Below are positions 20,901 through 63,549 of a stretch of 64,000 nt of DNA, one piece after another. The stretch is from contig CAZZHR010000002.1 in NCBI GenBank assembly GCA_964654205.1, positions 65,800 through 129,799 on the forward strand, given 5' to 3'. Position numbers and translations under genes: made by a program. Origin of the DNA: an uncultured Candidatus Saccharibacteria bacterium. Its GTDB lineage: Bacteria > Patescibacteriota > Minisyncoccia > Phycocordibacterales > UBA2100. A model generated the notes under the pieces. That model had not been told where the DNA came from, searched no databases, and saw nothing but the letters and a program-made list of their open reading frames with translations. Numbering within the stretch: position 1 is the stretch's first letter; every line of letters starts with the position of its first letter.

Positions 20901-21349
20901 GACGGCGCCGCTGCGATAGACGGCATCGCGTGAGCGACCTTCGCGCTCTGCGCCACCGCCGCAGCCTTCAATTTTTCCTGCACATGCTTCGCGTGCGCCG
21001 CCAACGTCTTCGTCACAGGTATTTGTCCGCTCACAGAAAGGGCGCTCTCGACACTCTTTACACTTTCAGATTTCAACTTTATATCTTGTGGCTTATTCTC
21101 CACCCCGTGATATTCACGCACCCGTTCATCCGACAGCTGCTCCCTGCGGATGGTTTTCGCATGCTCTTGCTCCACGAGGTATTTTTGGAGCGAGCCCTCA
21201 TCGACGTACCAGTTCTTGCCGATTCTTCTACCGCGAAGCCTTCCATCACGGCAAAGACGAGCGATGTAGTCGCGAGAGAGCCCTGCACTGGATGAAGCAT
21301 CCCCGGCCGAGAGGTGCTTCTGCCCGTCGAAATATATTTCGTTGCTCAT
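14912..21349 (-). CDS. Giant membrane protein (~2145 aa): cytoplasmic excisionase-type HTH (HTH_17-like), one TM, then a huge extracellular fibre-like region with >25 GN(V/I)GIGTT(S/T)P..KL.V repeats and a poly-Gly stretch
   Basis: Start set at the ATG at 21349 (MSNEIYFDG). The listed ORF begins at an upstream GTG. N-terminus LSRDYIARLCRDGRLRGRRIGKNWYVDEGSL aligns with the HTH repeats of the neighbouring gene. TM is FLQKFVAMLVAFTMTFGTYAFV. Repeats resemble tail-fibre proteins. Confidence 0.8.
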   Translation of the reverse strand: MSNEIYFDGQKHLSAGDASSSAGLSRDYIARLCRDGRLRGRRIGKNWYVDEGSLQKYLVEQEHAKTIRREQLSDERVREYHGVENKPQDIKLKSESVKSVESALSVSGQIPVTKTLAAHAKHVQEKLKAAAVAQSAKVAHAMPSIAAAPSGVHEAVARTLSHAHVHVPVYTISPATEFLQKFVAMLVAFTMTFGTYAFVDPAYARFAAETTREMAASVAQSLVRVDEVATRAVRAASDATYYAVENPEVALAQVSSATLSFFPDALRTIAKAVNTSVDTFVYNIVFPSDATNSLALTPLDAGFIDTMDPYERAQVIVAQSQQTPVVVSTSTVVTNERVVERIVETERIVASVGGITDADLDTRIAAVEQRLTSLVAGVSTAQSASITNVYQTVAHTNKIDQLSSVDISDSTITGGTLSGTTLSDITFTGSATTTFANGINLADGCFAVDGACITGGGGSVDTSVSNNWTALQIFSGNASSTNFSNFGTAYFGGSATTTIDSSGNLSVAGSSLLRGALTAYNTITAPIFTATSTTAASTFPYASSTALSVSGTAFFPGSGIWNPSGRVGIGTTNPQQPLHVTAGTTYQGILINGNVAPNVSFVRSGTTPEWKVGISGNDSSGFSISTGAAATDLLFLNTAGSVGIGNTSPTYKLHVSGNARFTSFVDASYFVATSTTATSTIASGGLAVGTSTPPSTSLFTVGTSSPLVFVDRISGNFGIGTASPTNGKLQITGGNAPSQLAITTSDWVSGSAGSVLFVASGASTGNTYFGLSAQSSGAGAWNNLVLQSGGGSVGIGNVSPWTTLAVTGGLGVTASSTIGDGTQAGGLTISGGATTTGNLLVQGLLGVGAASSDAKFHVSGSDPWFNLQNTDSGGKKWGFLAGDSGNTPAGALFFQNRTDGVNAFIVSPTGEIGFGKTSPTFTGIFNIYNEHDIAKPVIVGSLHTGSSADLLQLNSSSGSGGDLLAVKSTGSVGIGTTTPGSKLDVFGTSAAFDTSGDFRLFLNRAGTGNVGSMIFTTGGAGTGTGWAEIGQTGNNGDLHFKANATAGSYATRMLIQGSTGNVGIGTTSPWAKLSVQGSGTGTGILTEFFDSASTTRFRILDNGLGYFNGTFGIGTTTPYHILTVASSTGPQLALSDGLGSNLWTLRNIGSTFYLATSTHSSTSTVAALSFSASTGAATFGSPSTTTFSGGIQSTLLNITGSATSTFAGGVQLTSGCFLLPSGQCAGTGSGSSGGGGGGNTLIGTYATSTVGTSSVVFTGDPGSAPSFSGGTLTLPSDTSYIEVEVWGGGGGGGGGGNGGNGGVGGTTCFGSNSVACSSPHLSATGGGGGSGSNGPAASGGSGSGGEVNLVGGAGGLTLGIDADGGETQDLYAVGGAGGNGARGGGGGAGTTAAGGAGNAFGGGGAGGGINDLNNVWSGGGGGGGGYAYELVGSPTGTFYFTVGSGGSAGNAGTGGAGGAGGAGGFAVKVYTNRTVGTASSTVAFHVHRNGSATTTVSDTVLVVDWTTETYDTNNNFDLTTNRFTPTVAGKYIVVASVGCTNTTNNCQAAVRKNGVAIANGPYRSGGADAAQVTTIVDMNGTSDYLEAAVLSTGTAVDGSAVYTYFSGSLLASGGSAPAGGNGNIQFNYGGVMAASSTLTWDTVNARFGIGTSSPWAKLSVHALSGETNTMLFEIASSTASATSSLFAVTNTGNVGVGTTTPSTKLTVYSNVASVDGVTVTNANSNGQSTYTVHSDTATGYFRAYGSGVGYGLGGNTSFGSNTSLVLFTNGNVASGGSDSIQFRTGGYESSQERMRITSTGNVGIGTTTPGTKLDVYNTSSGATADQLYLTNAASATSTASRLSFRALDVTGTGTTTSAITSILQQNFGGLGKGDLVFSTLQSGALTEVMRATSAGFFGVGTTSPYRKFSVTAAAANPQVAISYNDSTVASLQVDSTGDLTIHTSNKNILLSDDNLLVCASGCPTSPTGAGKLYVETAAGIGTTTPAAKLTIETQDSSTNFIQVASTTAQSLFVINANGNVGVGTSTPFAKFAVGAGGAITTVERSLSDGATVAINWLEGNQQKVTLGGNRTITFSNFIAGQILRLVVCQDGTGSRTLTWPAVVRWQGGSAPTLTTTANQCDLVSFVATNATSSLVVFGAAATGFR

Positions 21350-21640
21350 GAGCGATGATGCCTGTGGCCGGACGCACGATTTATCTAATATTCTACTACT
21401 CTTTTCGCCAATTGGACGTGTATCGGACACTATTACGTGTGGACAAGCCTAAGCAGAATTTGTACCGGACATTTTTTACATTTTTTCCCACAAGTTCGTA
21501 TCAACGCACAAAAAATTCTCCGTTTTTTTGAAAAAAAGCCTCTTCACTACAACCTCTCACCTCTTACCTACCCCCCTCCTCCCGGCCGACTCGGGCATCC
21601 GAGGAGCGACGTAGAGCGGTATTCCGCGCGTGTGTGGCGC

Positions 21641-21695: not shown

Positions 21696-22682
21696 TCAGC
21701 GCGAATAGCGTACTTCTTTGCTCACGATGGCTTCCAGAAGGTCGATGAGTACTTCGAGGCCACTCGCTGCATTTGCGGTCATGGTCTCAACCGCGCCAAC
21801 ATCTGCCGCCTCGAACATTGCGTAAAGTGATTCACTCTTGATCGACGCAAAGCCATACGACATCACGATGACCACGGTGAGAGCCACGCCCGCTTTTATC
21901 GCCAAAGACTTAGACATTCCGGGCATCCGTCCACGTCGCATGGGTGCCGTCTTGGCCACTGCATGCGGCACAGCACCTGCACGAGCCCGCGTCTCAACAA
22001 TGCGAATCAGTACAGCATTCGGAAGCGGCTCCAACGCCGCGCTTCGCACTTCATCATTCGCCACCGTTTTCACGTCGGCTGTCGCATTTTGAGTGTCGCC
22101 CTTCAGCTGAGGTTTGTTCACCATTGGCATAAGATGCTTCTCGTCCCGGATGTAGGTGTAGTACGAGGTAGGCCTCTCATCTGATCTCAGCCCTTGAGGC
22201 ACATTACTCGGTGCCGGTCGTACCAGGCCTACTGCATCCGCCTGGACTGCAGCGAGAAGCGAATCTTTCTGGGATTTATGCGTCAAAAGGCCGTTTCTCT
22301 CGACATACCAGCGATTCCCTATTTGCCGAGAGAGTATTTTGCCGGCCCGAGCGAGCTGACCAATGTAGTCAGGATTGTAGCCTGTCATTTTCGCGGCCTT
22401 TGCCGCCGAGACATAGTCCTTGCCATCGAAGGTAATGAGTGTGTCGGCTGCGTCCACAGGCCGTATAGGGGCTTCTGGTGGCCTTGGGACGAATGAATCA
22501 GCATTGCGCTTGTACGCTTCGAGTGAGGCAGGATTCACGTACCAGAGCCCGCCTACGCGCTGCGCGTCGATGACTCCACCGCGCGCAAGCTGGCCGACGT
22601 AGTCCTGCGCGTAGCCGTATTCCTTTGCCGCGCGCTTCGAAGATATATATGTCGTTCCGCCGAGATATAGCTGATCTGCCAT
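21696..22682 (-). CDS. Membrane-tethered protein with two tandem excisionase-type HTH (HTH_17-like) domains, one TM and a short external tail
   Basis: Two copies of the pattern ..Y(I/V)S...AAK..GY..DY(V/I)GQLAR.G.I...R(V/I)G..WYV. TM is LAIKAGVALTVVIVMSYGFASI, preceded by RRGRMPGMSK (N-in). Start at MADQLY with a TATACT -10 box 6 nt upstream. Confidence 0.6.
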   Translation of the reverse strand: MADQLYLGGTTYISSKRAAKEYGYAQDYVGQLARGGVIDAQRVGGLWYVNPASLEAYKRNADSFVPRPPEAPIRPVDAADTLITFDGKDYVSAAKAAKMTGYNPDYIGQLARAGKILSRQIGNRWYVERNGLLTHKSQKDSLLAAVQADAVGLVRPAPSNVPQGLRSDERPTSYYTYIRDEKHLMPMVNKPQLKGDTQNATADVKTVANDEVRSAALEPLPNAVLIRIVETRARAGAVPHAVAKTAPMRRGRMPGMSKSLAIKAGVALTVVIVMSYGFASIKSESLYAMFEAADVGAVETMTANAASGLEVLIDLLEAIVSKEVRYSR

Positions 22683-22756
22683 GATGCAAGTATACAATGA
22701 GCCGCATCTCGGCTTCCCGACTTTCCGAGATTATGTGGACAGCGCAGTTCCTTCGC

Positions 22757-24196
22757 TTACCTCATTACCCCTTTTATGAGAAGCTCTCTCAATACCTCGG
22801 GGTCAGCTGAACCTCTGAGCTGTCGCATACACTGTCCTAACAAAAACTCAAGAGCAGCAGCCTTTCCTGCCCTGTAACCAGCCGCTACATTTGGGTTCGC
22901 GTCGATGACGCTCTTTACGACACCCTCCATAAGCACCGTATCAGTCTTCTGCAACAAGTCGTGCTTCTCCGCGATTGCAATTGGATTACCGCCCCCTTGT
23001 ACCATGAGCGCGAGAATATCTTTTGCAGCTCGAGAGGTTACCTTCCTTTCAGCGACAAGGCCGATAAGCTCCGCAAAGCCATGTGCATCAACAGGGATTT
23101 CGGCGCTTAAAATCGAATCTCGCACTTCGATGTCTCGGACAATTTTTACCAAATCATTCGCAATATAGTTACTCGCAATTGCGAGCTGTCCTGCGGCAAG
23201 CTTTGCCGCAACGGCGTCAAAAAATCTTCCGAATCGCTCATCCTTTACGAACGAATCCGCATCCTCAGGCTTCACGCCAGCCGCCTTGTACCGCGCGCGC
23301 CTTTGCGCAGGCAACTCCGGCAACTTTAAATCTTTAAACATTTCTACCTCTGAAAGCCTCAGGCTCGGTAAATCAGGATCCGGGAAGTATCGATAATCTG
23401 CGCTACCTTCTTTGGTACGCTGCGGGAAAGTCGCCTGCTTCGTCTCATCCCAACCGAGTGTCTGCTTGGTAACCTCGCCTCCAGTCTCAAGAAGCTTCGT
23501 CTGGCGCTCTATCTCGTAGCGCACGGCGCGCTCCATCGCATTAAAAGAATTTAGGTTCTTGATCTCTACGTATCCCATGGAGCGCTCCCCCCTTTTCGCC
23601 ACAGAAACGTTTGCTTCTACGCGCATCTCCCCTTTTTCCATGTTTGCCTCGCTCACGCCAAGCGCCCTGAGCAGTAGCTGCAGCTCGCGCGCAAACTCAC
23701 CCGCCTGCTCCGCGCTATGAATCACCGGCTCCGTAACAAGCTCCATAAGCGGGACACCAGCTCTGTTGTAATCGATAGTGGTCTCACCTGACACCTCGTC
23801 GCCTGCCTGCGCAGGTAGGTGCATCGAACTTGCTGTATCTTCCTCCAAGTGTACGCGCGTAATCGCTACACCGGCAAGCTCCCCTCCTGAAACTAGCGGA
23901 TGCTCGTATTGCGAGATTTGATAGCCCTTTGGCAAATCCGGATAGAAATAGTTTTTACGGTCAAACTCTGCGTAGTCTGCGAGCTTCGAGCCAAGCGCAG
24001 TTCCCACACGCAGTACATGCATGACTGCCTGCTTATTTATTACCGGGAGCGTCCCCGGGTGCGCCATGCACACAGGGCAGATGTTTACGTTGGGTCTTGA
24101 TTCATCAGGGTCATTTTTTGAAGCACAAAACATCTTCGTCTCGGTTCGAAGTTCGGCGTGTATTTCGAGGCCTATGGTGGGCACATACTCAGCCAT
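22757..24196 (-). CDS. gatB: Asp-tRNA(Asn)/Glu-tRNA(Gln) amidotransferase subunit B
   Basis: MAEYVPTIGLEIHAEL, ICPVCMAHPGTLPV and the C-terminal GatB/YqeY region. 479 aa. Confidence 0.85.
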   Translation of the reverse strand: MAEYVPTIGLEIHAELRTETKMFCASKNDPDESRPNVNICPVCMAHPGTLPVINKQAVMHVLRVGTALGSKLADYAEFDRKNYFYPDLPKGYQISQYEHPLVSGGELAGVAITRVHLEEDTASSMHLPAQAGDEVSGETTIDYNRAGVPLMELVTEPVIHSAEQAGEFARELQLLLRALGVSEANMEKGEMRVEANVSVAKRGERSMGYVEIKNLNSFNAMERAVRYEIERQTKLLETGGEVTKQTLGWDETKQATFPQRTKEGSADYRYFPDPDLPSLRLSEVEMFKDLKLPELPAQRRARYKAAGVKPEDADSFVKDERFGRFFDAVAAKLAAGQLAIASNYIANDLVKIVRDIEVRDSILSAEIPVDAHGFAELIGLVAERKVTSRAAKDILALMVQGGGNPIAIAEKHDLLQKTDTVLMEGVVKSVIDANPNVAAGYRAGKAAALEFLLGQCMRQLRGSADPEVLRELLIKGVMR

Positions 24197-24625: not shown

Positions 24626-27151
24626 CTACACGACAATGCGCCACCCGTCTGCGAGTAGGGGCTCGGCCTTCTTAAATTTCATTTCCTTGGTCTCAGTGCC
24701 ATTCGTAATAATGACTTTGTCGTTGCGACGGTATTCTTTCTTGCCCGCAATGGGCGCTTGTGCGGTGATACTCCGCGCCGCTCGCGATACCGCTTGTTCC
24801 CCCGCCGTCGCCGTGTGCACTCGCGGCGCCGCTCCGATATGTGGAATTAGTGTTCGTACGTGCGCAGCATACGTCTCCTCTAGCTGCTGGAAAAGCCTGC
24901 GACCTTCTTTTTTGTACTCGACGAGCGGATCGCGCTGTCCGTATGCGCGGAGATTCACGCTCGAGCGCAGGTACTCCATAGCTTCGAGATGCTCCACCCA
25001 GAGAAAGTCGATGCCCTGTAAGAGTATGCGGCGCACCGTCGGGACAAACGCATCCGTAAGCTCCTCTTTCTTTTTCTGTATAGCTTGAGCAAGAGCCTCA
25101 TCAGAGAGCGCGAGCCGCTCGAGCTCAGCCAGTACCGCCCCCTCTCCACCCGTCAGGAGGTCACGGCGACGTGTGTAGATGCTCTTGCGCTGGATGTTGA
25201 GCACATCGTCGTATGCGAGCACATGCTTGCGTGAGTCGAAGTGTATCTCCTCTATTCGCGTCTGCGCCTTCTCGAGCGAGCGCGTGATCATTTTGTTGAA
25301 TATCGGCTCGTCCTCGGGAATATTGAAGCTCCCCATCACCCGCTTGATGACGTCGCTCGCAAAAACGCGCATGAGACTGTCCTCAAGCGAAACGTAGAAC
25401 TGTGTCGCACCCGGGTCCCCTTGTCGGCCTGAGCGGCCACGCAGCTGGTTGTCGATGCGGCGCGCTTCGTGGCGCTCGGTGCCGAGCACAAAGAGGCCGC
25501 CGAGACTTTTTACTTCCTCGTAACTCTCCGGTGTCCCTGGATTGCCGCCGAGCTTAATGTCGACGCCTCGGCCGGCCATGTTGGTCGCGATGGTTACCGC
25601 GCCCTTCTTCCCGGCTTGCGCGACGATCTCACCCTCGCGCTCGTGATTCTTTGCGTTGAGCACTTCGTGCGGGATGCCCTCTTGCTTGAAGTACACCGAG
25701 AGCAGCTCGTTCTTTTCCACCGATACGGTACCGATGAGGACGGGCTGCCCCTTCTCGTGCAGCTCGCGCACGCGCTTCGCTATGGCTTTCATCTTGCCGT
25801 TCTCGGTCTGCAGGATGAGGTCGTCGAGGTCTGTTCGCTGAACGGGCTTGTTGGTCGGCACACTCGCTACGTTCAGGCCATATACCTTGTAGAATTCTTC
25901 GGACGAAGTGGCTGCGGTACCCGTCATGCCCGCGAGCTTGTCGTAGAGGCGGAAATAATTCTGGAAAGTTATCGATGCGAAAGTACGGCTCTCCTGTTGG
26001 ACTGAGACACCCTCCTTTGCCTCTATGGCCTGGTGGAGGCCATCAGACCACCTGCGCCCTGGCTGCATGCGACCCGTGAACTCGTCGACAATGATGACAG
26101 TCCCATCTCGCACTACGTAGTCCTTGTCTCGCTCAAAGAGAGCTTTTGCTCTCACGGCGGTCTCGAGGTGATGCACCATCTTGATGCCAGCATCCGTATA
26201 TATATTGTCTATCCCGAGCGCTGCCTGCGCCTTCTCGATACCTGCATCGGTCATCGCTATCTGTTTGTGCTTTTCGTCTACGGTGAAGTCCTCCTCGCGA
26301 ACCATGCCGCGCGCAATCTGCGCGAATCGCCCGTAGAGCGATTCTGCCTGCGAGACGGGTGCCGAGATAATCAGTGGCGTGCGTGCCTCGTCGATGAGGA
26401 TGGAATCTATCTCGTCGACTATTGCGAACCGGTACCCGCCATCCTGCGGGACGCGCTGACGCAAACCTGCTGCCTCGTATTCAAGGTTGTCGCGGAGGTA
26501 GTCGAAGCCGAATTCATTGTTGGTACCGTAGGTGATGTCGGCGGCATATGCTTCCCCGCGCGTACACGGACGAAGGAAATCTCGCGCCACCTTGAAGCTA
26601 CCTTCTGTATCCTGCTGCGCCTCTTCCTCCGCCTTGAGTTCCGGCGGAACATGCGATGGATCGTATATAAATGACGACTCGTGGTTGAGCACTCCCACGG
26701 TGAGGCCGAGTGCATAGTATATTTGCCCCATCCATGCGCCATCGCGGCGCGAGAGGTAGTCGTTGACAGTGATGACATGTACGCCTTTGCCCTCGAGGGC
26801 GTTGAGGTACGCTGGGAGCGTCGCGACGAGTGTCTTGCCCTCGCCCGTGCGCATCTCTGCGATGCCACCCTGGTGGAGTATCATCCCACCGATGAGCTGC
26901 ACGTCGAAGTGACGTTGACCGAGCGTCCTGCGCGACGCCTCCCTCACCGCGGCAAATGCCTCAGGCGCGAGGCTATCAAGGGATTCCCCGCCCGAAATGC
27001 GGACCTTGAATTCCGCGCTCTTTCCCTTGAGCGCCTCGTCGGTGAGCGCCGTAAACGTGTCTTCAAGTGCATTGACAGCAGCCACAATAGGCTGCGCCTT
27101 GCGGAGCGCCGCGACATTGGTATCTCCGAAGAGTCCTTTCCAAAATGACAT
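24626..27151 (-). CDS. secA: Preprotein translocase ATPase SecA (lacks the C-terminal zinc-finger)
   Basis: Start at MSFWKGLFG. Walker A MRTGEGKTLVATLP and DEAD-like DEIDSILIDEARTPL. C-terminus ends ...ADGWRIVV with no CxxC..C(H/C) motif. Confidence 0.9.
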   Translation of the reverse strand: MSFWKGLFGDTNVAALRKAQPIVAAVNALEDTFTALTDEALKGKSAEFKVRISGGESLDSLAPEAFAAVREASRRTLGQRHFDVQLIGGMILHQGGIAEMRTGEGKTLVATLPAYLNALEGKGVHVITVNDYLSRRDGAWMGQIYYALGLTVGVLNHESSFIYDPSHVPPELKAEEEAQQDTEGSFKVARDFLRPCTRGEAYAADITYGTNNEFGFDYLRDNLEYEAAGLRQRVPQDGGYRFAIVDEIDSILIDEARTPLIISAPVSQAESLYGRFAQIARGMVREEDFTVDEKHKQIAMTDAGIEKAQAALGIDNIYTDAGIKMVHHLETAVRAKALFERDKDYVVRDGTVIIVDEFTGRMQPGRRWSDGLHQAIEAKEGVSVQQESRTFASITFQNYFRLYDKLAGMTGTAATSSEEFYKVYGLNVASVPTNKPVQRTDLDDLILQTENGKMKAIAKRVRELHEKGQPVLIGTVSVEKNELLSVYFKQEGIPHEVLNAKNHEREGEIVAQAGKKGAVTIATNMAGRGVDIKLGGNPGTPESYEEVKSLGGLFVLGTERHEARRIDNQLRGRSGRQGDPGATQFYVSLEDSLMRVFASDVIKRVMGSFNIPEDEPIFNKMITRSLEKAQTRIEEIHFDSRKHVLAYDDVLNIQRKSIYTRRRDLLTGGEGAVLAELERLALSDEALAQAIQKKKEELTDAFVPTVRRILLQGIDFLWVEHLEAMEYLRSSVNLRAYGQRDPLVEYKKEGRRLFQQLEETYAAHVRTLIPHIGAAPRVHTATAGEQAVSRAARSITAQAPIAGKKEYRRNDKVIITNGTETKEMKFKKAEPLLADGWRIVV

Positions 27152-27159
27152 GGATACCC

Positions 27160-27168
27160 ATCCTACCA
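27160..27168 (-). promoter_or_regulatory. Extended -10 TGgTAGGAT 8 nt upstream of the secA ATG (minus strand)
   Basis: Minus-strand sequence GTGGTAGGATgggtatccATG. Lies immediately downstream of the terminator hairpin. Confidence 0.35.
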
Positions 27169-27194
27169 CTGTGCGACTTTTCAATCCATGAAAA

Positions 27195-52529: not shown

Positions 52530-53687
52530 TCAGCGTGCCGTGAGAATGTCCTCATACAATGTGATGAATGAATTCACCACGTTCGTAAGCTGGAACTGTT
52601 TAGACCTCTCATATGCAGACTTGGCCATTTTATTCCGCAGATCAAGGTTCACTAGAAGTTCCCGAATTTTCTCAGAGAATGCGTCTTCGTCACTCGGATC
52701 GACGAGGAAACCCGTAATCCCATCTTGCACCAATTCCGAGCAACCCCCCACATCGGTGGACACAATAGGAAGGCCGAAGTGCATGGCTTCGATGAAGACG
52801 TTGGGGAATCCCTCTTCGAGAGACGCAGACACGTAGAGCGCGGCGCCTTGAAACTGCGCATACACGTCTGCTGACGATAGGCGTCCTGTAAACGTGACCG
52901 GCACTCGGAGCCGCTTTGCTTCTGACTCGGATTCCTCGCGGATCCTGTCCTGGCCGTCACCGATGAGCACGAGATGTGCATGGGGGGTTTTCGCCTTGGC
53001 GAACGCACGGATTATCGTCGGTATTCTTTTGTGCGGAATGAACCGATTCGCTGACACGACGACAGGCTTGCTATCGTGAGTGAATGTCTTGTACCCGCCG
53101 CCCTCGATGTCGAGCGCATTTGGAATGATTCGGATACTCGCATCCTCGCCTGCTATCGCGCGAATGTTCTTCGCACGGAACTGTGAGGGTGCCCACACCA
53201 CAGAAAAAAGCAGAAGGCCGTGGCGTTCTATCCAAGTCAGGAACCTCGAAAAAACCGAGAAAGAGTAGGTGCCGCCGAAGTCACGGCTTTTTACGTCACT
53301 CGTTGCGTATGTTTCCCACACCCAGTCGCCTGCGAACTTTATGATACTGGGCATGCCTGCGATTTTCGCAAAAAGGCCTGCCACGAATGACAGTGCGCTC
53401 ACGCTGTGCGCATGTAGGATGTCCGGTCGCTCACGCACGATGACCCATGCCAGACATGCAGAACCGACGAGCCAGCGGATGGGCTTATCGAGCGGCGTGC
53501 GAGTGTAGCGCCAACGGTATCGGTACACCGTGTATCCGTCTGGATTCGACAACTCAAAGCGATCCCCTACAGTGACAACAACGGGTGTTACGCCCCTATC
53601 ATTGAGTACACGGCAAAGGTGCCACGACTGCGTTGCGGGCCCTCCTATCATGGGTGGGAAAATGGGCGCGTACATCAAGACTTTCAT
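52530..53687 (-). CDS. Glycosyltransferase family 4
   Basis: LYVSASLEEGFPNVFIEAMHFGLPIVSTDVGGCSELV. Confidence 0.7.
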   Translation of the reverse strand: MKVLMYAPIFPPMIGGPATQSWHLCRVLNDRGVTPVVVTVGDRFELSNPDGYTVYRYRWRYTRTPLDKPIRWLVGSACLAWVIVRERPDILHAHSVSALSFVAGLFAKIAGMPSIIKFAGDWVWETYATSDVKSRDFGGTYSFSVFSRFLTWIERHGLLLFSVVWAPSQFRAKNIRAIAGEDASIRIIPNALDIEGGGYKTFTHDSKPVVVSANRFIPHKRIPTIIRAFAKAKTPHAHLVLIGDGQDRIREESESEAKRLRVPVTFTGRLSSADVYAQFQGAALYVSASLEEGFPNVFIEAMHFGLPIVSTDVGGCSELVQDGITGFLVDPSDEDAFSEKIRELLVNLDLRNKMAKSAYERSKQFQLTNVVNSFITLYEDILTAR

Positions 53688-57238: not shown

Positions 57239-57272
57239 GTGTTGAAGCGTACAGTGTGTCGTTACAAAAGCA

Positions 57273-57300
57273 AAGTCGCCGTTTTCTCAAACGGCGACTT
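57273..57300 (-). terminator. Rho-independent terminator (minus strand): aagtcgccgttt-tctc-aaacggcgactt then TTGCTTTTGT
   Basis: Perfect 12-bp stem with a T-rich tail on the minus strand, after the stop of the 57371..57868 gene. Confidence 0.55.
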
Positions 57301-57370
57301 GTAACATGTGTCGTTCACTGGCCGCGGAGCTTGCGAATCTCGTCGGAAGTAAGCCCGAGGTCGCTCGGCG

Positions 57371-57868
57371 TCACCACGCCGCTCGCGAGCACATCGTTGC
57401 GTAGGTGGTCGAGCGCATGATCGGGCTCGGCCCAGACTCGCTCGCGGTGATGCGAACGAACTCCATAGCATGCGCAATCACCGCTGCGCGAAAATACGCG
57501 TCCACGACCTGCTTGGGCATGCCGATGTCAGCGTAGCTCAGGCCTTTCCGCAGTAGATCGTCGAGTTCGCGCCGCCCATGATGCGGATATTCGCCCGGAA
57601 GGGTCTGCCACCGATAGATGCAGTAGCGTACGCTGAAGATGTTCGCGCGCTTGCGAGCGCTCTTCAGCATCGTCTGCGTCACCCTGGTGCCGTCACCGAG
57701 GGTTACGACATGACCGTCCTCGATGAGCCGCGAGAAATCTTCGATGAAGTCGGGCATCTTCAGTGTAAACCAGTTCGACCTCTCCGTTGGCCAGAACCCT
57801 TCGCCGGTCGAAAGGAGCTCTTCGAGCTCTTTCGTGTTGTGTCGTGGTCGCAGTTTGGTGACGCTCAT
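57371..57868 (-). CDS. Hypothetical protein (165 aa), no recognised domain
   Basis: Clean ORF with its own terminator. The composition matches its neighbours. Confidence 0.45.
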   Translation of the reverse strand: MSVTKLRPRHNTKELEELLSTGEGFWPTERSNWFTLKMPDFIEDFSRLIEDGHVVTLGDGTRVTQTMLKSARKRANIFSVRYCIYRWQTLPGEYPHHGRRELDDLLRKGLSYADIGMPKQVVDAYFRAAVIAHAMEFVRITASESGPSPIMRSTTYATMCSRAAW

Positions 57869-57927
57869 CTGCGCCTCCCGGTTGCCAATACTCCTACCAT
57901 TATACCACGAATGCCAGACTCAAGCAA

Positions 57928-59136
57928 CTACACCGTATCCTCAACGATGCCCCACTCGCCCTGCCGCTTCCGGCGCACCGCCATCACAGCGCCACCAGTG
58001 AGGAGCGCGAGTGCGACGGGAGCAAACCACCACATGCTCATGCCGAACGATGCGCTTGCGGCAGCGACGGTAGGACGCACCACATCCGTGGCCGATTCTG
58101 GTACCACCTCCACCGCTTCAGTTTCCTCGTCGGGGGCAGCGGGAGAGAGTTGCACGGACGCGCGAGATGCGGGCTTAGGCGCTACACTCGACTGCACCGC
58201 TTGGAATTCGCTCGGCGAGGGCGCTGACGCTGGCGCACTCTGTGTGGGCGCATCACCCGCTTTCATCGCGAGTACGCCGTTGGGGTACGCGAGCTCCGCC
58301 TCCGCTCCTGCAAAAAAGCCGAGTGTTTTCGGAGATACCCGCATCGACGAGCCGGCAAGAATGAAGGAGTTGTCGGGCAGAAGAAATTCGCGCATGAATG
58401 CGCGAATAATCCATGAGGATAGGTCGAGATCTCGATCTGCATGGTTCTCGATTATCACGCTTCCGTCGGACTCAGCGCGAAACGCCAGCCGCGCTGGTTC
58501 TGCTGTGACGACGATACGGTCGCTTGCGGACTCAATGTCCTTAGCAACGGAGAGCACGACGACGTATTTCCCAGGGTACTCATAGTGGTGCGTCACGGTC
58601 GCACCTTCTGCCGTACCCCCATCGCCGAAGTTCCAGTTGAACCGCACATTGTCGAGGGGCTCCTTCTTCTTATTGTAGGCGCGTGCGCGATACGTCGTGT
58701 GCGCACCGACGATGACGACTCTGTCCTCGCCCGCGTCGACGAAGACTGAGGGGTCTGGCGGCGCTACGTATGACGAGACGGGTGCAATCTGCTGTGTCGT
58801 CGCTGTGGTCTGGGTATTCGTCGACTGAGTAGTGGTCGTGCTGGTGTCGGTTCCCGATGTTGTCTGTGCTTGTGATGATCCTCCTGGAGCTTCGCCGACG
58901 GTGATGAGATGTTTAAAATTGTCGAAAGTCGACGGTCCGATGCCATTGACATTGATGATGTCCTCAATTGTCGCGAAGGGGCCGTTCGTCGTCCTGTAAT
59001 CGATTATTCTCTGGGCCAAGGTAGGCCCAATGCCCGGGAGAGTATCGAGCGTTGCGAGGTCCGCCGTGTTGATATTGATGAGCGCATGCGCCGGGAGCGG
59101 CGCAAGAAGCAATATGAGTGCGACAAGCCATCGCAT
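57928..59136 (-). CDS. Surface DNA-binding protein: signal peptide + ComEA-type helix-hairpin-helix domain + S/T-rich linker + PKD domain + lamin-tail (LTD)-like domain + C-terminal TM anchor
   Basis: ININTADLATLDTLPGIGPTLAQRIIDYRTTNGPFATIEDIINVNGIGPSTF is a ComEA HhH signature. FNWNFGDGGTAEGATVTHHYEYPGKYVVVLSV is a PKD signature. VIIENHADRDLDLSSWII is LTD-like. C-terminal WWFAPVALALLTGGAVMAVRRKRQ is the anchor. Confidence 0.7.
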   Translation of the reverse strand: MRWLVALILLLAPLPAHALININTADLATLDTLPGIGPTLAQRIIDYRTTNGPFATIEDIINVNGIGPSTFDNFKHLITVGEAPGGSSQAQTTSGTDTSTTTTQSTNTQTTATTQQIAPVSSYVAPPDPSVFVDAGEDRVVIVGAHTTYRARAYNKKKEPLDNVRFNWNFGDGGTAEGATVTHHYEYPGKYVVVLSVAKDIESASDRIVVTAEPARLAFRAESDGSVIIENHADRDLDLSSWIIRAFMREFLLPDNSFILAGSSMRVSPKTLGFFAGAEAELAYPNGVLAMKAGDAPTQSAPASAPSPSEFQAVQSSVAPKPASRASVQLSPAAPDEETEAVEVVPESATDVVRPTVAAASASFGMSMWWFAPVALALLTGGAVMAVRRKRQGEWGIVEDTV

Positions 59137-59198
59137 GCACGGTATTATGCGACACGAATCAATGAGAGAGTGTTTGACTATTGAATCGCTGTGGATTC

Positions 59199-61079
59199 TC
59201 AGTTAACACCCTTGTCCTTTGTATCGCCGCCGTTGACGACGCGCTGGAGCACTTGGTTGGATACTTCAGGATTCGCTTGTGACCGCTCCCCGGCGTGATT
59301 CTGTTGCATCTCTGTAGGCTTTTGATGCGGCGTCGCATGGCGAGGACCGCCCTGAGACTTATCAAAGCGTTGCTCACCCCGGCCATGATTGTGGTGCGGC
59401 TGGTGGTCGCGCGACTGCTGTTTATGCGCCTGCTTATCGCGCAATAGCTCGAGCGGCGAGCGAGCGGGTGCTTGAGCTGATGAAATACCCTCGGCACGTG
59501 CCTTTTCTATCGCGTCGCGAAGAGAGTTCCGTCCCGCCTCGGCGCGAGGTTGGGTTGTCACCTGCTCGCGCCGCGGCTCCACCCTGGCAATGGTCGGCTG
59601 CAGTACGGGCGCAGGCGCAGGTGACGGGCGCGACTCGCGCAATCTCTCTGCCGGAGAGATGCTCGGGGGAGGTGTAAAGCCACCATTCGGCCGATAGTCG
59701 CGCCGTTCTTTTTTTTCTTTTGGCGGCGGGATGAACTCTTCTTGCTTAGATTTTATGAGCTCCTCTATCTTCGCCCTTGGTACGCCGAAGGCGTGTCGCG
59801 ACGACATGATGACATCGTCGCGGTATGTGATGTTGGGCGGCTCAATAGGCGGTATGGTCTCTGCCGAAAAGGGCGGCGAACCCACACCATCTATCATGAG
59901 CGTGAGGTAAATCTGCCCGAGGCCGAGATTCACGAGGTCCTCCGGTTCGAACGTGGGCTGGAAGACAGTCTCGAGAACTTCCGCGTCGAATGGACCCACC
60001 CGGAAGACAATGAGCGTGCCGACGTTGCCGAAGACCGCGTCGCGGACTTCCTCTTCCATCTGCTCGATGTACTGGTTGGCCAGCGTGAGCGCGAGCTTGT
60101 ACTTGCGGGATTCTGAGAGAATATCGGCGAATGCCTCGTTCATCATCGACTGGAATTCGTCGACATAAAAGTAGAAGCGAGGCAGTTTCGCAAGACGCAT
60201 CGGCGGTTCGTCTGCACGCGACATCGCAGCAAGGTAAATCTTGACGGTGAGCGCCGAGCCGAGGAGAGAGGCGTTCGTCTCGCCCATGCGTCCTTTTGAG
60301 AGATTGACGATGAAGATTTTCTTCTCATCCATCACTTTGCGCAAATCGAAGGAAGATTTTGCCTGGCCTACAATGTTGCGAATGAGAGGGTTTGAGACGA
60401 ATTGGCCGATTTTGTTCTGGATTGCCGGCAGAGCTTCGCGTGTGTATGTGTCGGTAAAATTCGCAAATTCCTCCACCCAGAACGCTTTGACGATAGGGTC
60501 TGAAACCTTTTCAAGCACCGCATTGCGATACGTTTTGTTGATGAGCATGCGGTTCACGTCGAGCAGCGTCGAGCCTGGATACTCGAGGAGTGCGAGCAGA
60601 GTGTTTTGCAAGATATACTCCATGCGGGCGCTCCACGCGTCCACCCAGATGCGTTTGAGTGCCCCCATGAGACCGGAGACGACGAGGTGCCGCTTGTCAT
60701 ACCCCACGTCCTCCATCACGTTGAATCCAAGGGGGTATTCGGTATCAAACGGCGCGAAGTAGATGACATCACTGATACGCTCCTGCGGGATGAAATCGAG
60801 GAGCTTTTCGGCGGTCGAGCCGTGGGGGTCGATAAAGGCGATGCCTTCCCCATTTTGAATATCCTGAATCGCCATGTTCTCGAGCATGGTCGATTTGCCC
60901 ATGCCGGTCTTGCCGATAACATAGATATGCTTTCCGCGGTCTATCGCGCGGATACCGAACATTTCCCTCTTTCCCCGCGTGTGCGTCGATGCGAAGTAGG
61001 TGATTCGCCTATCGTCGTCGAACTGGTCAGGGTGGGGCTTGTGCTCGCCTGAAGCGTGACTGTCGTGGTGCTCAGACAT
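59199..61079 (-). CDS. TraD/VirD4/TraG-like P-loop ATPase (type IV secretion coupling-protein family) lacking TM segments, with a long disordered basic Q/P/R-rich C-terminus
   Basis: Walker A YVIGKTGMGKSTML. Walker-B-like FYFYVDEFQSM. Internal region typical of TrwB/TraD AAA-like domains. The last ~170 aa are low-complexity. Confidence 0.6.
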   Translation of the reverse strand: MSEHHDSHASGEHKPHPDQFDDDRRITYFASTHTRGKREMFGIRAIDRGKHIYVIGKTGMGKSTMLENMAIQDIQNGEGIAFIDPHGSTAEKLLDFIPQERISDVIYFAPFDTEYPLGFNVMEDVGYDKRHLVVSGLMGALKRIWVDAWSARMEYILQNTLLALLEYPGSTLLDVNRMLINKTYRNAVLEKVSDPIVKAFWVEEFANFTDTYTREALPAIQNKIGQFVSNPLIRNIVGQAKSSFDLRKVMDEKKIFIVNLSKGRMGETNASLLGSALTVKIYLAAMSRADEPPMRLAKLPRFYFYVDEFQSMMNEAFADILSESRKYKLALTLANQYIEQMEEEVRDAVFGNVGTLIVFRVGPFDAEVLETVFQPTFEPEDLVNLGLGQIYLTLMIDGVGSPPFSAETIPPIEPPNITYRDDVIMSSRHAFGVPRAKIEELIKSKQEEFIPPPKEKKERRDYRPNGGFTPPPSISPAERLRESRPSPAPAPVLQPTIARVEPRREQVTTQPRAEAGRNSLRDAIEKARAEGISSAQAPARSPLELLRDKQAHKQQSRDHQPHHNHGRGEQRFDKSQGGPRHATPHQKPTEMQQNHAGERSQANPEVSNQVLQRVVNGGDTKDKGVN

Positions 61080-61087
61080 ACGGGAAG

Positions 61088-61194
61088 TATACCCCGTGAG
61101 ATAGGCGCTCCTCCGGTCTTTAATGCAAATTGGAGCAAAGCAGGATCGACCATGTTTCTAGGCTCACCCCGCACGCATATCTCACGGGGTATAC
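61088..61194. repeat. Perfect 16-bp inverted repeat GTATACCCCGTGAGAT (61088-61103) / ATCTCACGGGGTATAC (61179-61194) separated by 75 bp; the left arm overlaps the -10 (TATACT) of the TraD-like gene
   Basis: Read directly from the sequence. On the minus strand GGTATACT-tcccgtt-ATG gives a leaderless-type promoter inside the left arm. Confidence 0.65.
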
Positions 61195-61220: not shown

Positions 61221-62489
61221 TTATTGCGCCGAGAGCGCCTGTTTCAAGCTGCTGTATCGATTCGCGGGATCCCAGAAGTACCACGAGGTGAGCCCTGCGT
61301 CGTACGTTGCGCGTGTCTGGTCGAGGATGTCTTGCGCGGTATACGTCTTGCCGTAATTAAAATCCTGCAGCCACGGGCGCAGCATCTTGGGGTCATACAC
61401 CGGTTTCTCGTACACTGCCGGCGTCGACGTGCCGATACGCGTAAAGGCGAGCGACGGGACGGTCGTCGTGGGCGCTTTGAGTCGCCGCACCGCTTCGGCC
61501 ATGGATTGGTACACGACTTTGTACGGGTCACTGTTCGGGTCACTCAGTCCTGCAAAGCCCTTGTTGTAGTGCGATGGGTACACCATGGGCGCGATGTAGT
61601 CGAAATATGGAAGCGCGCGCTCGAGCTGTTGGCCGATACCGAGGTCGTCGGTGAGCACGGTCGTGTAGCCAAAGAGGTCTGCGCTCATGACCGGCACGTG
61701 GCCGCCGTGGTGCGCCGTATCAAATCCCTTTACTTGCTTGTGGAGATACGAGAAGAATTTCTCCAGCTCGCCTGCCCGGTCTGTCGAGGGATAGACGATG
61801 TCGCTCATGACGCCGTCGGATGGCCAACGGACGTAATCGTAATTCAGTTCGTCGAAGCCGAGCTCGTAGCTCTCTCGGCTAAGCTCCACAATGTAGTCCC
61901 AGTGCGGCTCCGAATTGACCGCGATAAATGAGAGGCCCTTGTGGTCTTTCCATGGCTCACCGGGCCGCGCCTTCGACTGCACCGCTCGCTCAGGATGCAC
62001 CTTCGACATGAAGGGGTCTTGGAACACCGTGATGCGTCCTATCACGTAGATTCCTTTTTCATGGAGCGTCGCGATGAACTCGCGCATATCGCCCGCTCCG
62101 CACTTGGCGGCATCCCACGCTGGTTTCAATTCCTCACTCTCGGGCTTGAACGCGATGGTACCTGAGTAATCTTTTATATCGATAACGACCGCGTTGAGCT
62201 TCGTCGAGTCCAAGAGTTCTACAAGGGTGTTGCGGAGCGAGGGCGTCCCCACGGCGCACTGCGTCATGTATATCGCGTACATGGGCTCCGGCGCGGCCAC
62301 GTGACTTACGCGCGCCTTCGGAGCCTCGGGAATCACCACCTTCGGCGTACTGGTCGCACCAGCGCGGATAAATTCTGCCGACGGATTAGAGAGAGAAATG
62401 AACACGCCCGCCGCAACGACGGCGGGTGCCGCGATGCCGAGGAAAACGACGCCTATCCTCGACGCGCTCGTTCGTTTAGAGCTGGACAT
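61221..62489 (-). CDS. Putative glycoside hydrolase, DUF4015-like, with N-terminal signal-anchor
   Basis: LNAVVIDIKDYSGTIAFKP and GIYVIGRITVFQDP resemble the DUF4015 putative-glycosidase TIM-barrel core. TM is IGVVFLGIAAPAVVAAGVFISL. The start could be 62489 or 62543. Confidence 0.55.
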   Translation of the reverse strand: MSSSKRTSASRIGVVFLGIAAPAVVAAGVFISLSNPSAEFIRAGATSTPKVVIPEAPKARVSHVAAPEPMYAIYMTQCAVGTPSLRNTLVELLDSTKLNAVVIDIKDYSGTIAFKPESEELKPAWDAAKCGAGDMREFIATLHEKGIYVIGRITVFQDPFMSKVHPERAVQSKARPGEPWKDHKGLSFIAVNSEPHWDYIVELSRESYELGFDELNYDYVRWPSDGVMSDIVYPSTDRAGELEKFFSYLHKQVKGFDTAHHGGHVPVMSADLFGYTTVLTDDLGIGQQLERALPYFDYIAPMVYPSHYNKGFAGLSDPNSDPYKVVYQSMAEAVRRLKAPTTTVPSLAFTRIGTSTPAVYEKPVYDPKMLRPWLQDFNYGKTYTAQDILDQTRATYDAGLTSWYFWDPANRYSSLKQALSAQ

Positions 62490-62724
62490 GCTCGTGACGC
62501 GGTTGCGAGACGTTCTCGGTTTCTGGTCGGCGCGGATTCTCAATGTGGCCGTACCTCCTGCGCACTACGATGCCGAGCGCGATGACGAAAACGCCAACAG
62601 CAAAGAAAATCCACGTGTCCCAGGTGTTGGGAAAGCCCAAAAAAGGAAGTGCTGCGACGAGGACGCCGGAGAGCATGATGAGCGCATCGAGTGTCATGTG
62701 GCCTAGTATATAGCCACGCGGCAT
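62476..62724 (-). CDS. Small two-TM membrane protein (82 aa), hypothetical
   Basis: LDALIMLSGVLVAALPFLGF and IFFAVGVFVIALGIVV hydrophobic helices. Immediately upstream of the glycosidase gene. Confidence 0.35.
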   Translation of the reverse strand: MPRGYILGHMTLDALIMLSGVLVAALPFLGFPNTWDTWIFFAVGVFVIALGIVVRRRYGHIENPRRPETENVSQPRHEHVQL

Positions 62725-62823: not shown

Positions 62824-63549
62824 TTATGCCGAGGACTGCGGCTCGATGATGACGACAAATTCTCCCCGCTCGGCCTTGCGCTTCTTCAGGTCTGCGGCGA
62901 GTTCTTTCGGCGTACCAGAGAGCATTTCTTCATGGAGTTTCGTGAGCTCGCGACCGATGTGCACTTTGCGAACTTTTACCACCTCAAGCTCCGAGAGGAG
63001 CTTCTGAATGCGGTGAGGCGACTCGAAAAGTACGACCGGGATGCCGCCCTGTGGTGAGCCTGGTCGAACCATCGCGGCGACTCTTTTTACAAATGTCTGA
63101 CGTCCTTTTTTGTGCGGCGCGAATCCAAGGAATGCGAACTCCGGCGACGCAAGCCCTGCAATCGAGAGCGCCGCGGTGAGCGAGCTTGGCCCTGGGATTG
63201 CGTCGACGAGTCCGCCGCCCTCGCGCACAAGTGCGACGAGGCGCGCGCCGGGGTCGGATATGCCCGGCGTCCCCGCGTCCGACACGTAGACCACATGCTC
63301 ACCGCTGAGCACGCGCTCGAGCACTTCTTTCGACTTCTTGCCCTCCATCGCCGCATCGAGTCGCTGGAGCGATTTTCTGATGCCATAGTGTGCGAGCAAC
63401 TTCGACACGACACGCGTGTCTTCTGCGTAGATAACACTGCACTCTTTCAAGTTCCACAGCGCCCGGAATGTGATATCGCCCATGTTGCCGATGGGCGTGG
63501 CGACGATAGAGAGTTTCCCCTGCTCGGTCTCCCTTGAGACTTCGTTCAT
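62824..63549 (-). CDS. rsmI: 16S rRNA (cytidine1402-2'-O)-methyltransferase RsmI (tetrapyrrole-methylase fold)
   Basis: LSIVATPIGNMGDITFRALWNLKECSVIYAEDTR matches the RsmI N-terminal signature. 241 aa. Confidence 0.8.
   Translation of the reverse strand: MNEVSRETEQGKLSIVATPIGNMGDITFRALWNLKECSVIYAEDTRVVSKLLAHYGIRKSLQRLDAAMEGKKSKEVLERVLSGEHVVYVSDAGTPGISDPGARLVALVREGGGLVDAIPGPSSLTAALSIAGLASPEFAFLGFAPHKKGRQTFVKRVAAMVRPGSPQGGIPVVLFESPHRIQKLLSELEVVKVRKVHIGRELTKLHEEMLSGTPKELAADLKKRKAERGEFVVIIEPQSSA

Follow-up and report, generated by a model that had tools for sequence, protein, structure and literature searches.

A stretch of 64,000 nucleotides of contig CAZZHR010000002.1 (referred to here as the window) was analysed with a focus on two adjacent minus-strand genes, one for a 626 amino acid P-loop ATPase related to the type IV coupling proteins (T4CPs; TrwB, TraD and VirD4) and one for a 402 amino acid surface protein with a ComEA-type helix-hairpin-helix (HhH) domain. 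Along that strand the genes run in the order DUF4015, ATPase, surface protein, a 165 amino acid open reading frame (ORF), an epimerase and a GT4 glycosyltransferase (Table 1). Relatives of the two proteins bear the names Candidatus Kaiserbacteria, Paceibacterota or Parcubacteria, and the locus was shown to sit in a Kaiserbacteria-like chromosome (Paceibacteria, within the Candidate Phyla Radiation, CPR); the G+C content of the window is approximately 56%. The two genes were found to be a real positional association that is conserved among relatives, in which a soluble ATPase is followed by a variable, membrane-anchored partner. An earlier note, made from the same DNA, had proposed that they form a regulated device for DNA import or export.

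A soluble ATPase of the coupling protein family

The ATPase scored above the gathering threshold with three Pfam families, TrwB_AAD_bind (PF10412; 33.9 bits, cut-off 20.5), T4SS-DNA_transf (PF02534; 27.5 bits, cut-off 20.1) and TraG-D_C (PF12696; 24.4 bits, cut-off 22), and its best sequence match in the PDB was TrwB (E 2e-5 with a profile). There was no match to FtsK_SpoIIIE at E <= 0.01, while the HerA-type family DUF87 reached 18.1 bits, under its cut-off of 23.2, and HerA itself an E value of 0.03 in the PDB search. Among the full-length TraD/VirD4 models of NCBIfam the best was TIGR03743, with 44.8 bits where 366 are required; weak NCBIfam matches were also obtained to CedD, the archaeal DNA-import ATPase. 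A match to the PHROG family phrog_5156 (E 4e-56) was observed, the phage profile being some 414 N-terminal positions longer, and proteins of Bacillus phage G (gp156) and of CP-51-like phages were 23-29% identical to the ATPase.

No transmembrane (TM) segment was found in the ATPase (maximum 19-residue Kyte-Doolittle value 1.27), the conserved core of which begins at about residue 25. The Pfam alignment covers positions 16-310 of the profile; residues 130-252 are predicted to contain helices. The protein ends in a tail rich in proline, glutamine and arginine (K+R 30 versus D+E 20). Tails vary across the relatives of the same subfamily (subfamily II, below), yet a terminal motif, (P)(F)EVSxDxLRKVLKG, is kept. 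The descriptions of the protein in the earlier note, as TraD/VirD4-type, free of TM helices, equipped with a basic tail of about 170 residues and, being soluble and long-tailed, not a classical coupling protein, were all borne out.

The terminal peptide (59202-59250 in the window; also in orthologues from L001 to L140, related loci being given here by number) recalls in style the C-terminal peptide of FtsZ, D-I-P-x-F-L-R-K. The FtsZ peptide recruits division proteins.

More than 8000 homologues of the ATPase were scored, with Kaiserbacteria/Paceibacterota relatives being 62-93% identical; the family as a whole gave 21,155 matches among 1.84 billion representatives, and 5698 clusters at 50% identity with E<1e-30. 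Between species representatives the ATPase core is 71-91% identical, compared with approximately 52% for DUF4015 and 63% for RsmI. The window ATPase was shown to belong to a group of orphan T4CP homologues found throughout the Patescibacteria. In a recent report 5713 T4CP homologues were counted in 2918 Patescibacteria genomes, of which only 148 lay near virB4, and the orphans were described as having no assigned function and as dispensable for Ca. Southlakia epibionticum (Quinonero-Coronel et al. 2025; PMC12102498).

The neighbourhoods of 171 ATPase loci were analysed and separated two subfamilies. Subfamily I is membrane-tethered through a TM segment and the domain DUF8128, which is either fused to the ATPase (as in the 956 amino acid protein P0300) or encoded immediately upstream, and its genes usually lie between a preceding sigma-70 gene and a following pgk. 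Subfamily II, which includes the window ATPase, has no DUF8128 module and carries the long tail; its genes stand in a block of RsmI, a small membrane protein, DUF4015, the ATPase, in many cases the partner, and epimerase/GT4 genes. DUF8128 is a TM-anchored domain of approximately 420 residues that was seen at L082 (5402-8272), L090 (679-2091), L169 (3406-4977) and in 24 metagenome loci; it had no match among solved structures in the PDB or in NCBIfam. That it might be an N-terminal domain of the VirB4 kind was considered.

A surface protein with an exchangeable N-terminal domain

The 402 amino acid protein begins with a hydrophobic, signal-like segment ending in AHA, followed by an HhH domain that matched HHH_3 (PF12836; E 6.9e-21, 74.6 bits, cut-off 27, residues 19-78) and the ComEA HhH region of TIGR00426 (59.6 bits, cut-off 53.1). 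A PKD domain was recognised by PKD_4 (E 4e-13, 49.6 bits, cut-off 27). In an AlphaFold2 model built from 36 homologues, the HhH domain and a pair of beta-sandwiches behind it reach a predicted local distance difference test score (pLDDT) of about 95, and the linkers are disordered and rich in threonine, serine and glutamine; the best Foldseek matches of the model were the PKD domains of the collagenases ColG and ColH (TM-target 0.70 for the ColG PKD). A TM helix lies at about residues 368-391 (residues 371-391 are helical in the model). Signal peptide, ComEA-type HhH, PKD domain and C-terminal TM helix had all been read from the sequence in the earlier note, and each was confirmed. The protein is accordingly predicted to be Sec-exported and anchored at its C-terminus; it may also be a glycoprotein, judging from its T/S/Q-rich linkers and the adjoining glycosyltransferase genes.

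The lamin-tail-like domain that had been proposed fared less well. Residues 216-300, the second sandwich, matched the Pfam lamin-tail domain (LTD; PF00932) at E 0.039 and 14.8 bits, under the cut-off of 34.3, and hhalign aligned them to the N-terminal LTDs of relatives with P 3.5e-4 (probability 37%, 50 columns, over the signature strand); PKD and Ig heads, used as controls, gave no match. An LTD profile also cross-matched the second-sandwich region in the distant relatives L088, L089, L111 and L136. On these comparisons the second sandwich appears at best weakly LTD-like.

Partner homologues share a body of PKD and LTD-like domains, a low-complexity stalk and a C-terminal TM helix, and differ in their N-terminal heads. 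At 62 species-level orthologous loci the architecture was LTD-PKD-LTD-like in 27, a short LTD-only form in 24, Ig-like-PKD-LTD-like in six, HhH-PKD-LTD-like in four and different again in one. The partner was shown to be a fast-evolving exported protein with an exchangeable head, which is mostly an LTD, sometimes Ig-like, and an HhH domain in the window; because HhH heads are rare among partners, the window protein is a minority variant of an LTD-type surface family. HhH forms are spread over several evolutionary distances (L041, L049, L051, L055, L063, L084, L095, L097, L098 and L108). Close relatives have a conserved cytoplasmic tail behind the anchor, made up of basic residues and then the pattern [DE][WF]x[IV]x[ED] (EWDIVEE).

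Conservation of the gene pair

A protein with a TM helix and tail is encoded directly after the ATPase at 62 of the 65 species loci with enough downstream DNA, once per locus and by that gene only. When domain profiles were run over 1.83 Mb of sampled flanks, all 97 ORFs of the LTD/PKD/HhH family lay directly downstream of an ATPase gene on the same strand, and none was found elsewhere in those flanks. The partner is present at 69 of 71 informative close (species-level) loci and at 26 of 43 more distant subfamily II loci; counting all soluble-type loci the figure is 95 of 114, against 1 of 26 subfamily I (DUF8128-type) loci. The pair was also retained where no other neighbour is shared: in L088 a pilin gene lies upstream and PheST and DprA downstream, in L089 TGT lies upstream, and in L138 the order is sigma-70, DUF8128, ATPase and LTD protein. 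ComEC was encoded 1.8 kb from a related ATPase in L090, the only related locus with ComEC nearby. We infer from the contrast between soluble ATPases with a TM-anchored partner and DUF8128-tethered ATPases without one the best hint of a physical partnership.

Two outcomes had been named beforehand as speaking against the proposal, an ATPase of the FtsK/HerA type and a pair that is not conserved in relatives; since the ATPase is T4CP-like and the pair is conserved, neither was found.

At L085 and L086 (7937-8611 in both) a gene for an IS200-like Y1 transposase (weak match to PF01797) lies on the opposite strand between the ATPase and surface-protein genes.

Promoter and inverted repeat of the ATPase gene

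A -10 box is located 6-8 nt before the ATG in 75 of 80 ATPase orthologues (TATACT in 60, TATAAT in 12), often with an extended -10 element TGn ahead of it, and a TAnnnT box lies 6-8 nt ahead of the start codon at approximately 20 of the 48 window genes, where Shine-Dalgarno matches are rare. Examples of such leaderless-type starts in the window are those at 112 and of the genes at 22757-24196, 24626-27184, 52530-53687 and 62824-63549. A leaderless start of the ATPase gene is therefore well supported as a prediction and, because the same box is so widespread, it is an ordinary gene start here; most transcription in this genome seems to be leaderless by default.

The TATACT box does lie within one arm of a perfect inverted repeat, as the earlier note had it, but the arms are 17 bp long rather than 16 and are separated by 74 nt (extended, 21 nt at 95% with 66 nt between). 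In an alignment with the three closest relatives (L084, L085 and L001) the repeat falls in a 102-nt segment that is absent from all three and is placed exactly after GGTATAC in the window, so that the region between DUF4015 and the ATPase gene measures 141 nt in the window, compared with 39 nt in L084 and 51 nt in L085. Its order is hairpin, cttcttGGTATACT, 6 nt and ATG in L084 and L001; in L085 GGTATACT is retained and the upstream sequence differs. A short palindrome, ATACCCC-TC-GGGGTAT, lies at the insertion site in L085/L086.

The arms are copies of a 13-mer, TATCTCAYGGGGT, of which 29 sites were counted in 1.17 Mb of Kaiserbacteria-like loci, compared with about 3 expected by chance; none was found in 661 kb of more distant relatives, and the window holds one site. 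About 12 of the sites are arranged as inverted pairs separated by 9-74 nt, and 14 directly adjoin ATAnT-N6-8-ATG. Among the genes behind them are the ATPase gene of five other species, those for MurC, MurD, Mpl-like ligases and an aminotransferase, and the small gene that precedes DUF4015. The interiors of paired copies are unrelated and their spacing is variable. By comparison with the relatives, the repeat entered the -10 region recently, as a 102-nt insertion of a paired motif that is specific to the lineage. It had been suggested to be an operator or DNA-looping arrangement; since it is absent from the closest relatives and belongs to a dispersed lineage motif, it is not an operator dedicated to the ATPase and its partner.

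In L006 (1470-1630) three tandem 63-nt units precede the ATPase gene, each with the perfect palindrome ATCTCACGGGGTATACCCCATGAGAT, which corresponds to the window arms joined back to back; the last unit supplies the -10 box.

What the repeat is for was considered in two forms, an operator pair (two inverted TATCTCAYGGGGT sites) of a lineage-specific regulator of envelope genes, or a small mobile inverted-repeat element, of the kind of miniature inverted-repeat transposable elements (MITEs) or REPINs, that targets GTATAC/-10 boxes; the first, with the second as its alternative, was judged about as likely as not. In the operator form the proximal site would fill the -24 to -13 spacer. This form is suggested by the ten-fold order of excess of sites over chance, by their paired arrangement next to -10 boxes and by the presence of cell-wall ligase genes among those downstream. 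The pyrimidine/purine position of the motif does not co-vary between the arms, which argues for recognition by a protein rather than for a hairpin. Against an operator of the ATPase/partner module, the motif was found at only about 6 of 80 orthologous promoters, with its single site in the window; its absence from the 661 kb of more distant relatives was also entered on the negative side. Mobility is suggested by the presence and absence of the insertion among close relatives, the duplicated GTATAC, the palindrome at the L085 site, the tandem copies of L006 and the Y1 transposase of L085. As in REPIN/MITE elements, there is an intergenic doublet of inverted arms of about 100 nt with 17-bp terminal arms, with a possible target duplication (ambiguous, as GTATAC is palindromic and the duplication is indistinguishable from a longer palindromic arm) and with copies dispersed over the lineage. 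Many copies with related interiors, which would be expected of such elements, were not seen: there is one copy in 64 kb and the interiors in relatives are unrelated, the spacing ranges over 9-74 nt, and the proximal arm is fixed at a leaderless -10 box. The repeat was read as a lineage-specific, protein-recognised pair of sites, which a small mobile element targeting GTATAC in -10 boxes may have spread.

An RNA hairpin was also considered, as the region folds strongly (z -7.9), and was rejected as the main reading: the transcript would start after the proximal arm, several copies have A-C mismatches at the pyrimidine/purine position, and the arms are conserved by sequence and not by covariation.

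Neighbouring genes and other features

Table 1. Features of the ATPase/surface-protein locus, by position in the window
Feature	Position	Strand	Basis or remark
DUF4015 putative glycoside hydrolase	61221-62543	-	First of the gene run discussed
13-bp-stem hairpin, terminator-like, weak T tail, directly after the DUF4015 stop codon	61196-61222	-	Kept in L084
Distal inverted-repeat arm GTATACCCCGTGAGATA	61178-61194	-	Sequence
102-nt insertion (96 nt + duplicated GTATAC) relative to three closest relatives	61087-61188	-	Alignment A5
Promoter-proximal inverted-repeat arm TATCTCACGGGGTATAC	61087-61103	-	Sequence
-10 box TATACT, 6 nt before ATG (at 61079)	61086-61091	-	Sequence; leaderless geometry
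626-aa soluble VirD4/TrwB-like P-loop ATPase, subfamily II (without DUF8128/TM module)	59199-61079	-	Pfam, PDB, homologue search
Walker A GKTGMGKS, residues 56-63	60891-60914	-	Regular expression on translation; invariant in alignments A1 and A2
Walker B FYFYVDE, residues 302-308	60156-60176	-	Aligns to TrwB Walker B region
171-aa disordered basic ATPase tail, ending in conserved peptide NPEVSNQVLQRVVNGG	59202-59714	-	Composition
Candidate -10 box CATAAT of surface-protein gene, 7 nt before ATG	59144-59149	-	Pattern match only
402-aa surface protein: signal peptide, HhH, T/S/Q-rich linker, PKD, LTD-like, linker, TM, short cytoplasmic tail	57928-59136	-	Profiles, model
ComEA-type helix-hairpin-helix domain, residues 19-80	58897-59082	-	HHH_3, TIGR00426, pLDDT ~95
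PKD domain, residues ~121-215	58492-58776	-	PKD_4, Foldseek
Second beta-sandwich, LTD-like, residues 216-300	58237-58491	-	Sub-threshold Pfam, hhalign, pLDDT ~96
C-terminal TM helix and cytoplasmic tail RRKRQGEWGIVEDTV	57931-58035	-	Helix in model; tail pattern in relatives
165-aa ORFan	57371-57868	-	Inside the span of the earlier note but not mentioned in its text; unrelated to module

The 165 amino acid ORF had no Pfam or PHROG match, and its sole match among 5.8 billion proteins was itself; it was rejected as a member of the module. A segment of approximately 690 nt (57239-57927) is missing from the closest relative L084, in which the surface-protein gene is followed after 20 nt by the epimerase. 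The ORF segment has a Shine-Dalgarno-like GGGAGG and a terminator-like hairpin (57273-57300).

Ahead of DUF4015 lies a gene for an 82 amino acid protein with two TM segments (62476-62724), which is found lineage-wide (69-85 amino acids) and carries the promoter motif TATCTCAYGGGGTATACT in two relatives (L016 6505 and L034 2825). The flank at 32560-57238 holds a long run of GT4 glycosyltransferases together with epimerases, a PMT_2-like protein, a flippase and an O-antigen-ligase/TPR protein, the neighbours of the pair in the window being cell-wall and glycosylation genes. Further away are two adjacent giant ORFs, one of 1375 amino acids with DUF7483 and SPRY (10115-14242) and one of 2172 amino acids with only an N-terminal HTH_17 (14912-21430), and a third HTH_17 protein at 21696-22697. 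A tRNA scan of the window and an Rfam scan at gathering thresholds returned no match.

Possible functions of the pair

The leading model, which is held tentatively and with less than even confidence, is that the pair captures and translocates DNA, and does so for DNA scavenging rather than conjugation. The HhH head of the partner here, or the LTD head elsewhere, would tether DNA from outside the cell, or some other polymer, to its surface; a cytoplasmic hexameric ATPase would work on the inner side of the membrane at that site, perhaps recruited by the anchor and tail of the partner, and may handle incoming DNA in the way that T4CPs handle DNA. The pair would then be a DNA-scavenging aid for an organism unable to make nucleotides, and not a conjugation or type IV secretion system (T4SS) device. 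T4CPs show DNA-dependent biochemistry, and this was counted in favour of the model, as were the exchange of HhH, LTD and Ig-like heads on one scaffold, the link of LTDs to extracellular nucleases and the scattered competence neighbours in L088 (pilin and DprA) and L090 (ComEC). ComEA has been annotated in only 31% of CPR genomes, and an alternative DNA-binding mechanism was suggested by the authors of that survey (PMC6744442). The predicted placement of an HhH domain (HHH_3/TIGR00426) outside the membrane on an anchored protein resembles ComEA of Gram-positive competence. The topology of the 402 amino acid protein is however reversed, with a cleavable signal peptide, an N-terminal HhH and a C-terminal anchor; it has additional PKD and LTD-like domains, scored 67.5 bits with TIGR01259 (cut-off 152), has no comEC or comF in the window, and in most orthologues bears an LTD or Ig-like head in place of HhH. 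LTD-containing extracellular nucleases such as ExeM of Shewanella likewise have an N-terminal LTD in an envelope or secreted protein, and relatives of the partner carry a clear one, but the window protein has no nuclease domain, and its own LTD-like domain is weak. Extracellular nucleases are found with LTDs, and deletion of the ExeM LTD slows DNA degradation in vitro (PMC6085458).

A more specific form, in which a receptor captures extracellular DNA and passes it to a T4CP-type motor docked on its membrane anchor, as a CPR-specific two-protein machine alternative to the ComEA/ComFA arm of competence in organisms that live on scavenged nucleotides and with the DUF8128 paralogue as a tethered version of the same motor, is speculative and was considered rather doubtful.

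Several observations weigh against DNA capture and translocation. Adjacency is all that appears to connect the pair to a common function, and part of its conservation is lineage synteny, because most close loci share the larger block of RsmI, small membrane protein, DUF4015, ATPase, partner, epimerase and GT4. At 17 of 43 distant subfamily II loci there is no partner and the ATPase directly precedes GT4 genes. The HhH head, the sole direct link to DNA, occurs at only 4 of 62 species loci, and bacterial LTDs have no established function (PMC6085458). The acidic-aromatic tail of the partner is lineage-specific and does not co-vary with the C-terminal motif of the ATPase, a co-variation that was looked for as a sign of docking. 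No comEC, comFA, pilus or T4SS gene was detected among the window ORFs scanned with Pfam. The AlphaFold2 model of the ATPase, built from 36 close homologues, had a mean pLDDT of 46, too poor for a fold test. Finally, conservation of the ATPase far above its neighbours and its position among cell-wall genes would fit a housekeeping role equally well. Of the regulated import or export device first proposed, the atypical ATPase and the conserved pair thus stand, but the rarity of HhH and the lack of comEC, pilus and T4SS genes in the window do not favour it.

A nearly equal rival, itself credible at about the same tentative level, is that the two proteins are not coupled: the ATPase would be a core cell-cycle or envelope housekeeping motor of CPR bacteria and the partner a variable, probably glycosylated, adhesin or S-layer-like protein from the same envelope-biogenesis cluster. 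The high identity of the ATPase core relative to DUF4015 and RsmI is consistent with this, as are the contents of the conserved block (Mur ligases, RsmI, DUF4015, a PBP/L,D-transpeptidase, an epimerase and GT4), the distant loci without a partner, the T/S/Q-rich linkers of a partner encoded beside glycosyltransferase genes, and the 13-mer promoter motif, which the ATPase gene shares with MurC, MurD and Mpl-like genes and with the small gene that precedes DUF4015. This apparent regulon is, however, biased, because it was sampled near the ATPase only. An uncoupled partner would also not be expected to occur exclusively at the +1 position in the flanks sampled, to persist beside the ATPase in L088, L089 and L138, contexts that share no other gene, or to be distributed in a manner complementary to DUF8128.

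ATPases of the T4CP superfamily bind short C-terminal peptides, as in EccC/EsxB and TraD/TraM, and the window ATPase could similarly be a receptor or motor for protein, recognising the EWDIVEE-type tail of its partner and either placing or energising it or docking on it at the membrane, now that the TM/DUF8128 module has been lost. A TM helix, basic residues and [DE][WF]x[IV]x[ED] tail are kept on very different ectodomains, once per locus, and soluble ATPases have the partner where membrane-tethered ones do not. This reading was nonetheless considered improbable: partners in L088, L097, L102, L136 and L140 end after the TM helix or with 3-4 further residues while the ATPase motif is unchanged, and a partner with an ordinary Sec signal peptide and stop-transfer anchor needs no extra motor.

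The idea of a mobile element that carries a classical coupling protein, of conjugation or of a T4SS, together with a DNA receptor was effectively refuted. The best Pfam and NCBIfam matches are to TraD/VirD4/TrwB families, and the ATPase has in common with these coupling proteins a homologous P-loop nucleotide-binding domain with Walker A and B motifs; the stretch between the two, where coupling proteins have their all-alpha domain, is predicted to contain helices. It differs from them in having no N-terminal TM anchor and in its long basic disordered tail with a terminal peptide; all NCBIfam scores are far below the cut-offs. No VirB4, mating-pair formation or relaxase gene was detected, either among the scanned ORFs of the window or at the related loci that were annotated, and the context at 150 or more loci is chromosomal, syntenic and housekeeping, free of VirB4, relaxase and integrase genes. 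The small number of such genes near virB4 in the published survey, 148 of 5713, points the same way (PMC12102498).

Substitution of the ATPase for FtsK was not favoured, FtsK having been reported in Saccharibacteria in published work. A role in MADS defence was rejected on context: Mad8/HerA-type ATPases share P-loop homology with the window protein (PADLOC mad8 E 1.4e-16, with HerA models weaker), but no other mad genes, NurA or defence partners were found among the window ORFs searched with Pfam or the four local proteins searched with PADLOC.

Significance

The ATPase family and its orphan status are already published, and the window ATPase agrees with the orphan homologues described in being of the same abundant CPR family, mostly encoded far from virB4 (PMC12102498). 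In the available part of that report no mention was found of two subfamilies, of an LTD/PKD/HhH partner or of a C-terminal peptide, and a limited literature search likewise returned no description of the two subfamilies, of the conserved LTD/PKD/HhH partner with its exchangeable heads, of the peptide at the end of the tail or of the paired promoter motif.

CPR/Patescibacteria are unable to make nucleotides and presumably subsist on DNA that they scavenge, although only about a third have an annotated ComEA, and thousands of CPR VirD4-like ATPases lie outside any secretion system and have no known role. The comparative picture of leaderless starts and of a lineage-specific paired promoter motif has a value of its own. 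Subfamily II together with its surface partner, which may carry an HhH head, offers a concrete and testable handle on the question of the orphan ATPases, and the partnership would give bacterial lamin-tail domains a first context.

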